Source: a virus (taxonomy: Duplodnaviria; Heunggongvirae; Uroviricota; Caudoviricetes). From it: a stretch of DNA of 3,492 nucleotides. Location of the stretch: IMG/VR virus record IMGVR_UViG_2737471838_000002; one strand, written 5' to 3'. Positions 1 through 3,492 of this stretch are shown piece after piece. Under the pieces are notes generated by a model that was given only the letters and a program-made list of their open reading frames with translations, searched no databases and had not been told where the DNA came from. Position 1 is the first letter of the stretch; each line of letters opens with the position of its first letter. The position numbers and the translations under genes were made by a program.

Positions 1-112
1 AACTGAAGTTGCCCTGAAAATGAAATTTTTTTGCACAACCGCAGAACTTTTCCGCAGGGCATCAGTCTTAATTAGTGCCACTGCTTTTCTTTGATGTCCC
101 CATTTTGTGGAG

Positions 113-155
113 CCCATCAACCCCGCCATTTCGGTTCAAGGTTGATGGGTTTTTT
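113..155 (+). terminator. Putative rho-independent terminator: perfect 10-bp inverted repeat followed by a T6 run
   Basis: Seen in sequence: CCCATCAACC (113-122) pairs perfectly with GGTTGATGGG (140-149), 6 G:C pairs, with a 17-nt loop, followed directly by TTTTTT (150-155). The T-run is on the + strand only, so it would stop transcription entering from the left. An open frame (frame 2, positions 2-100) ends at TGA 98-100 just upstream, consistent with the 3' end of a + strand gene. The loop is longer than typical, which lowers confidence. Confidence 0.45.
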
Positions 156-235
156 GTTGCCTGAAATTTAAGATGTTTAAAATCATGATGTTAGAAGCAC
201 TGTTTTTTAACGATGGCGACAAAATGGCGGCAGCG

Positions 236-454
236 TCAAAGAGAGAGCGCCACCTGTCCTGATTTCATTGGATGCGGCTGAACTGGATTCGACTCTTTTG
301 GTGTTGCAATCGAACGAACAAAAGTTTCATGGGTAACAAAAGTATGGCTGCAGTTAATGTTCTGGCACTGGTTATAACGCTCTTTGGTCAATGAAGATAC
401 CTGAAAACTGCTGCGAGTATGGGCGGCACTTCCACACAGTGGGCAAATCATCAT
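236..454 (-). CDS. ogr: Ogr/Delta-family zinc-finger transcriptional activator (P2 late-gene activator homolog), 72 aa
   Basis: The translation MMICPLCGSAAHTRSSFQVSSLTKERYNQCQNINCSHTF... carries the C-x2-C-x22-C-x4-C arrangement and the KERYxQCQN(V/I)NC block that I recall from P2 Ogr and P4 Delta. Start moved from the track's GTG at 487 to ATG at 454: this gives a 72-aa product (the length I recall for P2 Ogr) and a GGGGAG Shine-Dalgarno at 465-470, 10 nt upstream. The family call is from memory, not a search. Confidence 0.88.
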   Translation of the reverse strand: MMICPLCGSAAHTRSSFQVSSLTKERYNQCQNINCSHTFVTHETFVRSIATPKESNPVQPHPMKSGQVALSL

Positions 455-650
455 TTTTCGAGTTCTCCCCATTTTTGCTAAATTCACAACAATGATACCG
501 TATTATTCCATTTTGCAAACTTAAAAGTTCTCCATTGCGAAGAATCATTCCATTTCGAAATCATCAATCCTCACTTCAAGCTCCAGACTGGTCGTAAAAC
601 CGTTATCCGGGCTGACGGTATGTGTCAGGGTGGTAATGGTCCATTCCGCA

Positions 651-1133
651 TCATCTAACGGTATCAACTGCACTCGCCATCGCAGGATTAGCCTGTAAAC
701 GGGCCTGCAATGAAACAGCGGCCAGCGCCATCAGCCGTGTTACAGAGTTAATGCTGCTGATAGCATCACGACGACCTGCACTGGTTTTTACATCGCCGGA
801 TACCGCACCTGCAGCAACACGCCCGATCTCTGCGGTTGCACTCATGACATAATGCGGCAGTTTCTCTTTTGCCACCTCATTAATCGGTACACATGGCAGG
901 CAGTGAATCTGTGCCAGAAAGCCATCTACCAGCGTTGAATCTTCAGTCAGATCGGTAAGCAACCAGATTTCTGGTGCGGTTAATAAATGAGGTTGAGCTG
1001 GGTTCAGCTTGTTCCGCAGAATCTGTACATTCATGCCTGCACGTTCTGCCAGTTGCACCAGGTTGTGGCGCAGTGCGAATGCACGACAGGCTTCGTCAAA
1101 ATGTGGATGTTTGGAAACTTGGTAATCAAACAT
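651..1133 (-). CDS. cII: Phage 186 CII-like (CP76 family) lysogeny-establishment transcriptional activator, 160 aa
   Basis: It lies immediately downstream of the apl-like gene, in the position of 186 cII. The N-terminus [19 protein letters not shown] and the segment [17 protein letters not shown] resemble the 186 CII / Pfam Phage_CP76 helix-turn-helix region as I recall it. Start moved from the track's TTG at 1139 to ATG at 1133, which has a GAGG Shine-Dalgarno at 1142-1145, 8 nt upstream. Size is close to 186 CII (about 169 aa). Confidence 0.75.
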
Positions 1134-1165: not shown

Positions 1166-1387
1166 CTAATTAAGGTTTAGATTGCATTCTGAAAGCGCAT
1201 CAACGGTCATTGCTGCTATGTTGATCATCACTTTTTCGCGTTTTTTATCTTTGCGCAGTCGGTGACGGATAAGGCGTCCATCAGCCAACATGTCATTGAT
1301 GGTATCGATGGATAGCCCTGTCAGCTCGCTATAGCGTTCAATAGTCACATGAGGGGTGGTAAGAGTGATTGAAATGTTAGGTCTCAT
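1166..1387 (-). CDS. Apl/Cox-like small DNA-binding protein (excisionase and switch regulator candidate), 73 aa
   Basis: A 73-aa ORF with an ATG start at 1387, transcribed divergently from the repressor gene and directly upstream of the cII-like gene, which is the position of 186 apl and P2 cox. The segment [23 protein letters not shown] looks like an excisionase-type helix-turn-helix. The assignment rests on position, size and this motif only; sequence similarity to Apl/Cox was not verified. The GAGG upstream is 11 nt from the ATG, which is suboptimal. Confidence 0.55.
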
Positions 1388-1459
1388 GATGCAACATTCC
1401 TCGTTTAATGATGATTAATCAGGACGAATACGGATCGTTTGTATTTTGTGAACACCATA

Positions 1460-1488
1460 AACATACGATCGCACAGTGAAATCGTCAA
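1460..1488 (-). promoter_or_regulatory. Candidate sigma70 promoter for the leftward apl-cII(-ogr) transcript (pR-equivalent)
   Basis: On the - strand: -35 TTGACG (+ coordinates 1488-1483), a 17-nt spacer, and -10 TATGTT (1465-1460). The predicted start near 1453 gives a ~65-nt leader to the apl-like ATG at 1387. Its location near the repressor start codon matches the face-to-face promoter layout described for the 186 and P2 switches. Motif-based only. Confidence 0.35.
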
Positions 1489-1512
1489 GATAAAAGTTCA
1501 CTTGGAGTGACC

Positions 1513-2097: not shown

Positions 2098-2289
2098 ATG
2101 CTTGGTAAGGTATTTTTTGTGGTTTTATCATGCTCTTTGTTATTAAACCCACTAACTACCTATGCTAAAAATTATCCTTGTTCTGGGAAAAAGGGAGGTG
2201 TCTCTCACTGTACCTCCGATGGAAAGTTCGTTTGCAATGATGGAACTATTAGTAAATCAAAAAAAATCTGTACTAAAAACTCGCGATAA
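2098..2289 (+). CDS. Small hypothetical secreted protein: predicted Sec signal peptide plus ~40-aa lysine-rich mature peptide with 4 Cys
   Basis: There is a strong Shine-Dalgarno GGGAGG at 2087-2092, 5 nt before the ATG at 2098, and only 15 nt separate it from the repressor stop, so it is probably co-transcribed. The N-terminus [23 protein letters not shown] has the n-, h- and c-regions of a signal peptide, with a likely cleavage after TYA. The mature part [40 protein letters not shown] is cationic with four Cys. The coding region is AT-rich. No confident family is recognised. Confidence 0.5.
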
Positions 2290-2475: not shown

Positions 2476-3492
2476 ATGGCAGTACGAAAACTCACCACAG
2501 GAAAATGGCTTTGCGAATGTTACCCCGCCGGACGTAGTGGACGTCGTGTGCGTAAACAATTCGCCACCAAAGGCGAAGCTCTGGCTTTTGAGCGTCACAC
2601 GATGGAAGAAACCGAAGCAAAGCCCTGGCTGGGCGAATCAGTGGATCGTCGGACATTGAAAGACGTGATTGAGCTATGGTTCAAACTACATGGTAAATCT
2701 CTGACAGCTGGACAGCATGTCTATGACAAACTGCTGTTGATGGTTGACGCTCTGGGCAATCCCCTTGCAACTGATCTAACCTCTAAAATGTTTGCCCACT
2801 ATCGAGATAAACGCCTGACAGGTGAGATCTACTTCAGCGAGAAATGGAAGAAAGGAGCAAGCCCGGTCACCATTAACCTGGAGCAAAGCTATCTAAGTAG
2901 TGTTTTTAGCGAACTATCCCGCCTGGGCGAATGGTCGTATCCGAACCCACTGGAGAACATGCGAAAATTCACCATCGCAGAAAAAGAGATGGCATGGCTT
3001 ACCCATGAGCAGATTGTTGAACTGCTGGCTGATTGCAAACGTCAGGACCCAATTCTGGCACTGGTAGTCAAGATATGCCTAAGCACAGGCGCACGCTGGC
3101 GAGAAGCAATAAATCTTACCCGCTCGCAAGTGACCAAATACCGAATTACCTTTGTAAGAACGAAGGGGAAGAAAAACAGAAGCATCCCTATCAGTAAAGA
3201 GCTTTACGAAGAGATCATGGCGCTTGATGGGTTCAATTTCTTTACAGACTGCTATTTTCAATTTTTATCCGTGATGGAAAAAACGTCTATCGTGCTCCCT
3301 CGCGGTCAACTGACACACGTTCTGCGCCATACGTTTGCGGCGCACTTCATGATGTCGGGTGGAAATATCCTTGCTTTGCAAAAAATCTTCGGACATCACG
3401 ATATAAAAATGACTATGCGCTATGCCCATTTAGCACCCGATCATCTTGAGACGGCTCTGAGATTCAACCCCCTCGCAACGCTAGAAGTGTGA
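2476..3492 (+). CDS. int: P2/186-type tyrosine recombinase (phage integrase), 338 aa, complete
   Basis: The N-terminus MAVRKLTTGKWLCECYPAGRSGRRVRKQFATKGEALAFE parallels the P2 Int N-terminus as I recall it (MAIKKLDDGRYEV...GRNGKRIRRKF...EAVAFE). The C-terminal catalytic region has LSTGARWREA, HVLRHTFAAHFMMSGGNILALQKIFGH and MTMRYAHLAPDHL, which supply the Arg, His-x-x-Arg and Tyr residues of the tyrosine-recombinase active site. Start set at ATG 2476 (GGAGGG Shine-Dalgarno 7 nt upstream) rather than the track's ATG at 2398, because the 26-aa extension has no counterpart in P2 Int. The stop TGA is at 3490-3492. Confidence 0.93.
   Translation: MAVRKLTTGKWLCECYPAGRSGRRVRKQFATKGEALAFERHTMEETEAKPWLGESVDRRTLKDVIELWFKLHGKSLTAGQHVYDKLLLMVDALGNPLATDLTSKMFAHYRDKRLTGEIYFSEKWKKGASPVTINLEQSYLSSVFSELSRLGEWSYPNPLENMRKFTIAEKEMAWLTHEQIVELLADCKRQDPILALVVKICLSTGARWREAINLTRSQVTKYRITFVRTKGKKNRSIPISKELYEEIMALDGFNFFTDCYFQFLSVMEKTSIVLPRGQLTHVLRHTFAAHFMMSGGNILALQKIFGHHDIKMTMRYAHLAPDHLETALRFNPLATLEV

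Follow-up and report, generated by a model that had tools for sequence, protein, structure and literature searches.

The analysed window, a stretch of 3,492 nt to which all positions refer, matches the E. coli ZYB62 chromosome between ybjL/rybB and rcdA at 100% identity, and its genes are arranged on both sides of a short intergenic spacer (Table 1). The initial annotation had described the two genes flanking this spacer as a divergent apl-like/cI-like pair, and domain and family searches agree with that description. CI contains the domains PF07022 (E=3e-33) and PF16452 (E=9e-27), aligns with the CI repressor of phage 186 over 175 residues at 32% identity (BLASTP, E=1e-37) and matches the crystal structures of 186 CI (PDB 2FJR, E=4e-31, and 2FKD). 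The Apl-like protein matches phrog_575, 'Cox-like excisionase and repressor' (E=6e-31), the PHROG to which 186 Apl also belongs, and the CII encoded behind it is 69% identical to that of 186. The gene set is thus of the 186 type, with a repressor of 186 domain composition, a divergent first lytic gene of the Cox/Apl type and then cII. The length of 125 bp given earlier for the spacer is likewise correct, the apl-like gene starting at 1387 and cI at its ATG at 1513. An Rfam search of the whole window at a permissive threshold returned the RybB small RNA as its sole match, with none in the spacer.

Table 1. Genes and predicted sequence elements of the window (a dot marks elements listed without a strand).
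Feature	Positions	Strand	Remarks
RybB sRNA gene	80-158	+	Rfam, 105 bits
ogr/B-like zinc-finger gene	236-454	-	
Late gene D fragment	545-661	-	
cII, 3' end lost to internal deletion	651-1133	-	PF06892; 69% identical to 186 CII
Putative CII-binding site ATGTTTG-N13-CAAACAT	1106-1133	-	aligns with annotated 186 CII site; nearly invariant in relatives
Element GTTCGATTCTGAAATA at apl stop codon	1151-1166	-	position of distal 186 CI operator FR
apl/cox-like gene, 73 aa	1166-1387	-	first of lytic operon; phrog_575
Predicted lysogenic promoter -35, TTGAAA	1369-1374	+	in apl codons 5-7; register of 186 pL; TTGnnA invariant
Weak dyad GGTCTCATGATGCAACA	1380-1396	.	over apl ATG and pL spacer/-10; same match at same place in L007
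Predicted lysogenic promoter -10, CAACAT	1392-1397	+	aligns with 186 pL -10 CATGAT; CAnnAT invariant
Three direct repeats, 10-bp phased: GTATTC 1431-1426, TGATTA 1421-1416, TCATTA 1411-1406	1406-1431	-	
Perfect 10-bp palindrome TGATTAATCA	1412-1421	.	between the two predicted starts
38-bp imperfect palindrome	1433-1470	.	18-nt arms, 14/18 matched; centred on lytic start; ends GATCGT/ACGATC
Weak candidate dyad O3, GTTTGT-ATTTT-GTGAAC	1437-1453	.	over lytic start; one arm weak
Predicted lytic promoter -10, TATGTT	1460-1465	-	consensus scan; 17-bp spacer to -35
Candidate dyad O2, GATCGC-ACAGT-GAAATC	1467-1483	.	fills lytic -35/-10 spacer; 6/8 arm positions symmetric
Predicted lytic promoter -35, TTGACG	1483-1488	-	consensus scan; conserved TTGAC
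Candidate dyad O1, GTTCAC-TTGGA-GTGACC	1496-1512	.	upstream of lytic -35; overlaps cI ribosome-binding site
cI repressor gene, 189 aa	1513-2082	+	PF07022 + PF16452
Small secreted-protein gene	2098-2289	+	
Integrase gene	2476-3492	+	

Two copies of a 14-bp core, ATGGGTTTTTTGTT, enclose a prophage remnant of 3.3 kb. One copy forms the 3' end of rybB (145-158) and the other lies beyond int (L001 10083-10096). Through a deletion, cII now runs at its 3' end into a gene D fragment beside ogr and lacks the last 10 codons of its counterpart in PhiECO1, and the replication, lysis and structural genes are absent. Judged from its sequence, the window is an internally deleted remnant of a 'Rybb'-type P2/186-like prophage at rybB, in which the switch governs only int, cI, apl and the truncated cII, and in which it probably survives as an immunity module. 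Rybb prophages have been described in E. coli B, W and Crooks (PMC3032704), and E. coli HS and E. coli B ATCC 11303 have full-length prophages at this site, whose Apl-like protein is the same and whose CI is identical or almost so; these correspond to the Rybb prophages and to PhiECO1/PhiECO2 (PMC3448106).

The spacer is 100% identical to those of the intact prophage PhiECO1 (E. coli HS) and the E. coli B prophage, and strains REL606 and BL21 have it in identical form. CI (WP_001047321) shares 186 of 189 residues with PhiECO1 CI (98.4%, three differing residues) and the Apl-like protein (WP_001247707) is identical. PhiECO1, PhiECO2 and PhiSEN1 were grouped in silico as a likely CI immunity class by Nilsson et al. 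2011 (PMC3448106), on the grounds that their CI proteins are more than 96% identical and their '125 nt long spacers' 98-100% identical. The window, integrated like them between rybB and rcdA, lies within both of these ranges and differs from the other members in being a 3.3-kb remnant. The immunity class of its switch was already noted in silico in 2011, and the switch belongs to the 186-type family as a heteroimmune member. DNA homologous to most of the region 1340-1560 was detected in ~10% of complete E. coli genomes (539 of 5426), including B/BL21, HS and Crooks, and in the literature searched we found no experimental mapping of promoters, starts or operators for the PhiECO1-type immunity class. 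P2 Hy dis, a hybrid carrying the immunity region of an E. coli B prophage, was considered as a source and rejected, its repressor being a P2-type C protein (PMC1904268); we infer that its immunity probably came from the other B prophage, P2*B at cyaR (PMC3032704).

The initial annotation had placed a leftward promoter, TTGACG-17-TATGTT, close to the start of cI, and this pair is indeed present on the minus strand (1488-1460), where it adjoins cI as the lytic promoter of 186 does. It is the best minus-strand candidate and is listed by a consensus scan at 9/12, a match that would not be significant alone, given that the window contains five promoter-like sites against 6.2 expected by shuffling. 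Support for this predicted lytic promoter comes from conservation and not from the scan score. We assembled 19 related loci, one genome per species, and sought the best sigma-70-like hexamer pair on each strand. The top-scoring pair fell at the same place in 18 of these loci and in 186, in the form TTGAC(G/A)-17-TAnnnT adjoining cI among the relatives, the one exception being L006, in which the -10 is mutated to TGTGTT. The GenBank record of 186 (Eganvirus ev186, NC_001317) annotates pR, pL and pE plus the CI, Apl and CII sites, and its pR reads TTTACT-17-TATATT. With the start offsets of 186, the leftward transcript would begin at about 1451-1454 and run toward apl.

The distance from the lytic -35 to the cI ATG is just 24 bp in the window, against 14 bp for the -35 of 186 pR, so that any promoter for cI must lie downstream of the lytic start and hence be convergent with it. 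A lambda-like layout, with back-to-back divergent promoters and a cI promoter that lies without overlap between the lytic promoter and cI, has the divergent gene order in its favour and nothing else, and we regard it as extremely improbable. These 24 bp leave no room for such a promoter, no plus-strand candidate scoring at least 7/12 has its -10 downstream of 1488, and the characterised relatives of P2 and 186 all have face-to-face promoters (PMC7498355, PMC1904268).

The initial annotation listed no convincing plus-strand promoter for cI and supposed that it might be intrinsically weak or lie within the 5' region of apl. Both suppositions appear to apply to TTGAAA-17-CAACAT, the best plus-strand candidate within 1330-1490, which has a poor -10 and a -35 embedded in the 5' coding part of apl; its score of 8/12 is just below the threshold of the scan, which explains its absence from both the scan output and that annotation. 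The best plus-strand pair has the form TTGAAA-17-CA(A/G)(C/T)AT in all 19 loci, at a constant offset from the apl ATG that equals the offset of annotated 186 pL (TTGCGA-17-CATGAT), whose -10 occupies the positions 5-10 bp upstream of the apl ATG and whose -35 lies at +13 to +18 inside apl. In an ungapped alignment (A1) of 186, the window and five relatives, which brings together three different Apl families, TTGnnA, CAnnAT and a TGCA abutting or overlapping the -10 are all invariant, and the lysogenic hexamers fit those of 186 pL without gaps. Part of the conservation of the -35 is attributable to the coding constraint on apl, since the codons concerned encode a conserved Ile-Ser-Ile.

With the start offsets of 186, the rightward transcript would begin at about 1403-1405 and cross the lytic promoter on its way to cI. 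Measured between their inner edges, the two -10 hexamers are 62 bp apart in the window, 14 bp less than the 76 bp of 186 and within the 62-79 bp of the relatives, and the predicted starts are separated by ~48 bp, compared with 62 bp in 186 and inside the range of 40-60 bp given for P2-like phages (PMC7498355). Register and conservation over the 19 loci hence support, on grounds of homology, the convergent and overlapping layout that had been proposed by comparison with 186 pR/pL, with promoters that would be face-to-face and transcripts that would overlap by ~48 bp.

It could also be argued that the lytic promoter is real while TTGAAA-17-CAACAT does not work at all, cI being transcribed only from the CII-dependent establishment promoter at the apl/cII junction or from another start, and the segment 1361-1400 being conserved for apl coding and translation initiation. 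The low score and the poor -10, which kept the pair out of a standard scan, would suit this explanation, as would the overlap of the -35 with conserved codons and the good conservation of the CII site and the pE-like region. However, the hexamers align base for base with an annotated and experimentally studied promoter, 186 pL; the intergenic -10 and its TGCA are invariant over three Apl families although free of coding constraint; and stable lysogeny needs a cI promoter independent of CII. We consider this explanation improbable, and even without a lysogenic promoter the transcription of cI would converge on the lytic one.

Two palindromic elements had been put forward as candidate binding sites for the repressor or the Apl-like protein. 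The first, the perfect palindrome TGATTAATCA, is present where it was reported, but its value as an operator is doubtful, given that a perfect palindrome of at least 10 bp arises in 14% of shuffles of this spacer (38% GC) and that only its TAATCA(C) half, on the minus strand, is kept in loci with the same Apl-like protein (L007, L004, L008). As to the second, an inverted pair GTGAAC/GTTCAC, GTGAAC does lie at 1448-1453, while GTTCAC occupies 1496-1501 and not 1497-1502, and the inverted pairing itself is at chance level, the spacer holding three 6-mer inverted pairs against 2.2 expected (P=0.37). That TGATTAATCA is a dyad for a dimeric CI or Apl-like protein and that GTGAAC (1448) and GTTCAC (1496) form a single long-range inverted repeat is unlikely. 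In its favour, the whole 3.5-kb window has only two copies of GTTCAC/GTGAAC, both inside the spacer, where they flank the lytic promoter with their centres 48 bp apart, and TGATTAATCA is invariant in 80 population samples, its centre (1416.5) lying 28.5 bp from O3 and from the pL dyad alike and so in register with the other dyads. Against it stand, besides the shuffling results and the loss of one palindrome half in loci whose Apl-like protein is nearly identical, the habit of Apl and Cox proteins of binding direct and not inverted repeats (PMC7498355) and the existence, for each GTTCAC/GTGAAC copy, of a nearer partner 5 bp away. The two hexamers are better read as halves of the separate dyads O1 and O3, and TGATTAATCA could be a weak repressor contact in register with these dyads.

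Between the promoters and also at att, proteins of the Apl/Cox family are reported to bind 6-bp direct repeats with a spacing of 10-11 bp (PMC7498355). The three phased repeats of Table 1, to which the conserved half of TGATTAATCA belongs, may be an array of this kind for the Apl-like protein, a suggestion that we make with low confidence. Phased repeats are also found beside the att core, inverted relative to those of the switch as in 186, the motifs in both places being AT-rich and of low information. An Apl-like motif derived from att fits both yCAC and TNATTA types, on the basis of two att regions, both at rybB (L001, L006). No IHF consensus was seen by eye near the palindrome.

The search for repressor operators led to three dyad-like 17-mers that cover the lytic promoter. 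O1 is the best candidate, by its likeness to the operators of 186: it is one mismatch away from the B-type core of 186, TTCAC-N5-GTGAA, is the only match in the window with at most one mismatch, and is conserved in L005 and L006. O2 sits where 186 has its central CI operator and shows a symmetric double change, CAC.GTG to CAT.ATG, in L005, L006 and L028, the carriers including one population variant. Counted from the first base of the lytic -35, O1, O2 and O3 are centred at -16, +13 and +43, with spacings of 29 and 30 bp, and the symmetry is weak in two of the three. Matches occur at the same three offsets in L007, whose CI is 54% identical and whose spacer is much diverged; there the third dyad carries its strong half-site on the opposite arm with its centre unchanged (+43). 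The three centres relative to the -35 are identical in the window, L005 and L007. Analogous triplets are found in L004 and L008 at -17.5, +13.5 and +46.5, and within the L008 triplet the copies agree with one another in 13-14 positions out of 16 (11 pairs of this quality, with 0.44 expected).

Symmetric sequence is enriched in this region in general, with 11 dyads of 8-bp arms observed against 2.8 ± 2.2 expected, and in the region of the 38-bp imperfect palindrome three 16-mer inverted pairs reach 12/16 or more where 0.76 are expected; in L008 a comparable inverted repeat with 23-nt arms sits in the same place. The weak dyad at 1380-1396 is a possible repressor contact over pL, and in 186 poorly defined CI contacts are known to reach over pL (PMC3675496). 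Folding of the RNA of both predicted leaders gave no significant structure (z = -1.06 and +0.93 versus shuffles), which makes the dyads more likely to be protein sites on DNA than RNA elements.

The map of O1, O2 and O3 over the lytic promoter is nevertheless tentative, and we hold it at somewhat less than even odds because the half-site is loose, the loci compared are related and so not independent, and the spacing is unlike that of 186. In a scan of a 32-kb prophage the half-site G-N-T-C-N-C gave 13 matches against 12 expected, a chance level in keeping with its low information, while the stricter B-type core of 186 gave five matches with at most one mismatch in a whole-prophage scan against about one expected, one of the five being a perfect site at L105 8960-8976. 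At the ogr promoter, exactly as at the lytic promoter, GAACTTTTA is found upstream of the -35 at a distance of 7 nt, and GTGAAT directly follows the ogr -10. We rejected this promoter as an independent set of CI sites, phage KP12 having a nearly identical ogr promoter with different CI and pR-region sequences.

Sequence variation within the class was surveyed in the 135 nt upstream of apl in 80 IMG/VR loci whose Apl-like protein is 100% identical. These loci comprise 22 haplotypes. Of the 22 distinct changes, 17 cluster in a stretch of 37 nt around the core of the lytic promoter (binomial P ~1e-6), with a single varying locus in 1388-1449. The hexamers are weakened by several of the changes (TTGACG to TTTACG, TTGGCG or TTGATG; TATGTT to TATGCT), and the centre of O2 (1475-1476) shows at least eight allele combinations, or ten when 1474 is counted. 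A1475G belongs mostly to one clade, the other variants being scattered over different backgrounds. This pattern looks like decay of the lytic promoter in resident prophages, or like selection there for a quieter one. A GATC (1467-1470) located one base upstream of the lytic -10 is invariant in the 19 relatives and has no counterpart in 186; full-length relatives encode a Dam methylase.

At the junction of apl and cII, a conserved CII-binding site would mark a pE-like establishment promoter on the plus strand directed toward cI, as its alignment with the annotated site of 186 suggests, with a rightward start predicted near 1160 and a -10 that is not confidently placed. At the apl stop codon, alignment A2 sets GTTCGATTCTGAAATA under ATTCACTTTATGTGAAT, the distal CI operator FR of 186, and AGTTCGAT is conserved in L004 and L007; this conservation could arise instead from the constraints on the pE promoter. 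No dyad resembling FL was found in cI, where a lone GTGAAG lies near 1793.

Taken together, we estimate at roughly 80% the probability that the spacer forms the lysis-lysogeny switch in a P2-like prophage of 186 type and PhiECO1/Rybb immunity class, with face-to-face promoters and a mechanism like that of 186. Since the window has the same parts list as 186 (CI, an Apl-family protein, CII and a CII site), the same logic is the most likely one, and it is by analogy that we infer promoter activity, relative strength, interference and all the protein-binding sites. A fairly strong lytic promoter would fire leftward from ~1452 into apl-cII, and a weak lysogenic promoter would fire rightward from ~1404 through the lytic promoter into cI-int. 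By analogy with 186, the unrepressed lytic promoter would suppress the lysogenic one through transcriptional interference; in that phage the strong, convergent pR inhibits the weak pL 5.6-fold, mainly through the removal of polymerase that waits there, and repression of pR by CI relieves this effect (PMC6593788). CI bound to the dyads at 1496-1512, 1467-1483 and 1437-1453, about three helical turns apart, would cover the lytic promoter and stop its transcription, thereby freeing its own promoter from interference. The Apl-like protein, on the phased repeats between the two starts, might damp the switch during induction, and CII would turn on the upstream establishment promoter at the apl/cII junction. 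In 186, CI forms a wheel of seven dimers that contacts pR through three operators and pL through weaker sequences, with loops to the distal sites FL and FR, ~300 bp away (PMC3675496).

The likeness to 186 extends over the gene order (int, cI, divergent apl, cII), the domain architecture of CI, the lytic promoter adjoining cI, the register of the lysogenic hexamers, the CII site at the start of cII, the element in the position of FR and one B-type-like dyad. However, the two CI proteins share just 32% identity and the Apl-like protein can hardly be aligned with 186 Apl, a divergence that implies a different immunity. The window also differs in its lack of the A-type sequences of 186, in the spacing of its candidate operators (~29-30 bp as opposed to two helical turns) and in its att, which is rybB and not an Ile tRNA gene. 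With P2-type switches (Pe/Pc; P2, P2 Hy dis, WPhi) it shares a first lytic gene of the Cox/Apl type, which is also the excisionase. The C repressors of P2 have ~100 aa, are unrelated in sequence to CI and bind two direct repeats, and P2 has neither cII nor an establishment promoter, whereas the window encodes a 189-aa repressor with 186 domains together with cII and consequently falls outside the C/Cox type.

The switch of 186 is a textbook case of convergent promoters coupled to a repressor wheel, and the window offers a second, heteroimmune version, which would let the generality of 186 features such as start separation, operator spacing and distal sites be tested. Its value is incremental, since the architecture is already well established. 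A more specific proposal, which we think improbable, is that the repressor of this class and those of L004, L007 and L008 contact three operators at intervals of about three helical turns (29-33 bp, and not two turns as in 186), with weaker in-register contacts over the 10-bp palindrome and pL, and that the invariant GATC makes the lytic promoter or the central operator methylation-sensitive; if true, the three-turn spacing implies a different geometry of wrapping on the CI wheel. Such remnants probably continue to produce CI, and would hence confer immunity to related phages.

The attachment core of the prophage, ATGGGTTTTTTGTT, coincides with the 3' end of the RybB terminator (window 145-158), and a duplicate occurs past int in the locus that extends beyond this gene (L001, 10083-10096). 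The same core is used by the prophage of Klebsiella sp. R390 and by phage KP12. Two sequences resembling the arm-type consensus of the 186 integrase, YAYCGCCAYTY, on the opposite strand, were also observed, namely GATGGCGACAAAATGGCGGCAG at window 212-233 and AATGGCGACAAAGTGGCGGCAG past int (L001, ~9965-9990). The internal deletion of the window (Table) corresponds to ~28 kb of PhiECO1, the related prophage of E. coli HS, and has removed the last 10 residues of CII. The 63-aa protein encoded downstream of cI displays, as judged by eye, a signal-peptide-like N-terminus and several cysteines, and its gene is probably a moron; other cargo occupies the interval between cI and int in relatives, as exemplified by the ATPase of KP12.

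Table. Coordinates of features in the window
Feature	Position	Description
RybB sRNA gene	80-158	Rfam match, 105 bits
ogr promoter candidate	492-532	TTTGCA-16-TATCAT
Prophage-internal deletion joint	545-661	cII 3' end fused to late gene D C-terminal fragment, adjoining ogr
Perfect 9-bp inverted repeat	1153-1161 / 1186-1194	TTTCAGAAT / ATTCTGAAA; arms separated by 24 nt
63-aa gene	2098-2289	between cI and int; matches NF007463/PRK10040 and phrog_6000

The candidate ogr promoter and the lytic promoter, the pR-like promoter of the - strand that adjoins cI and reads toward apl, have an upstream sequence in common. The sequence GAACTTTTA is located 7 nt upstream of the ogr -35 and is identically placed at the lytic promoter, corresponding to TAAAAGTTC at 522-530 and 1491-1499, respectively; GTGAAT lies directly past the -10 of the ogr promoter. 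Phage KP12 has a nearly identical ogr promoter region, yet its CI differs. As a separate observation, GTTCAC-CTATC-GTGAAT in PhiECO1 (L105, 8960-8976) matches perfectly the B-type operator core of 186. The gene in which this site sits is hypothetical and follows a DinI-like one, and ~0.03 perfect matches to the core would be expected in 32 kb; the site may be a distal repressor site. In the window, the inverted repeat covers the 3' end of apl and overlaps the element at the position of FR, the distal CI operator of 186.

Among the 80 population copies of the switch, whose Apl-like protein is 100% identical to that of the window, polymorphism was concentrated at the lytic promoter core (window 1460-1488), above all at 1475-1476. 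In these copies, 17 of the 22 distinct changes were confined to 37 nt at this core and included down-mutations of both the -35 and the -10, with nearly no variation elsewhere in the spacer. Positions 1475-1476 displayed at least eight combinations of alleles, and 10 when the adjacent 1474 was counted.

A GATC is located at window 1467-1470, and at the same position in loci L004-L021 of the related set, upstream of the lytic -10 by one base. All 19 related loci carry GATC beside the lytic -10, whereas 186 does not. The second GATC of the window (1433-1436) forms, together with that at 1467-1470, both ends of a 38-bp palindrome. A gene for a DNA adenine methylase is present in full-length relatives. 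The lytic promoter may be sensitive to methylation.
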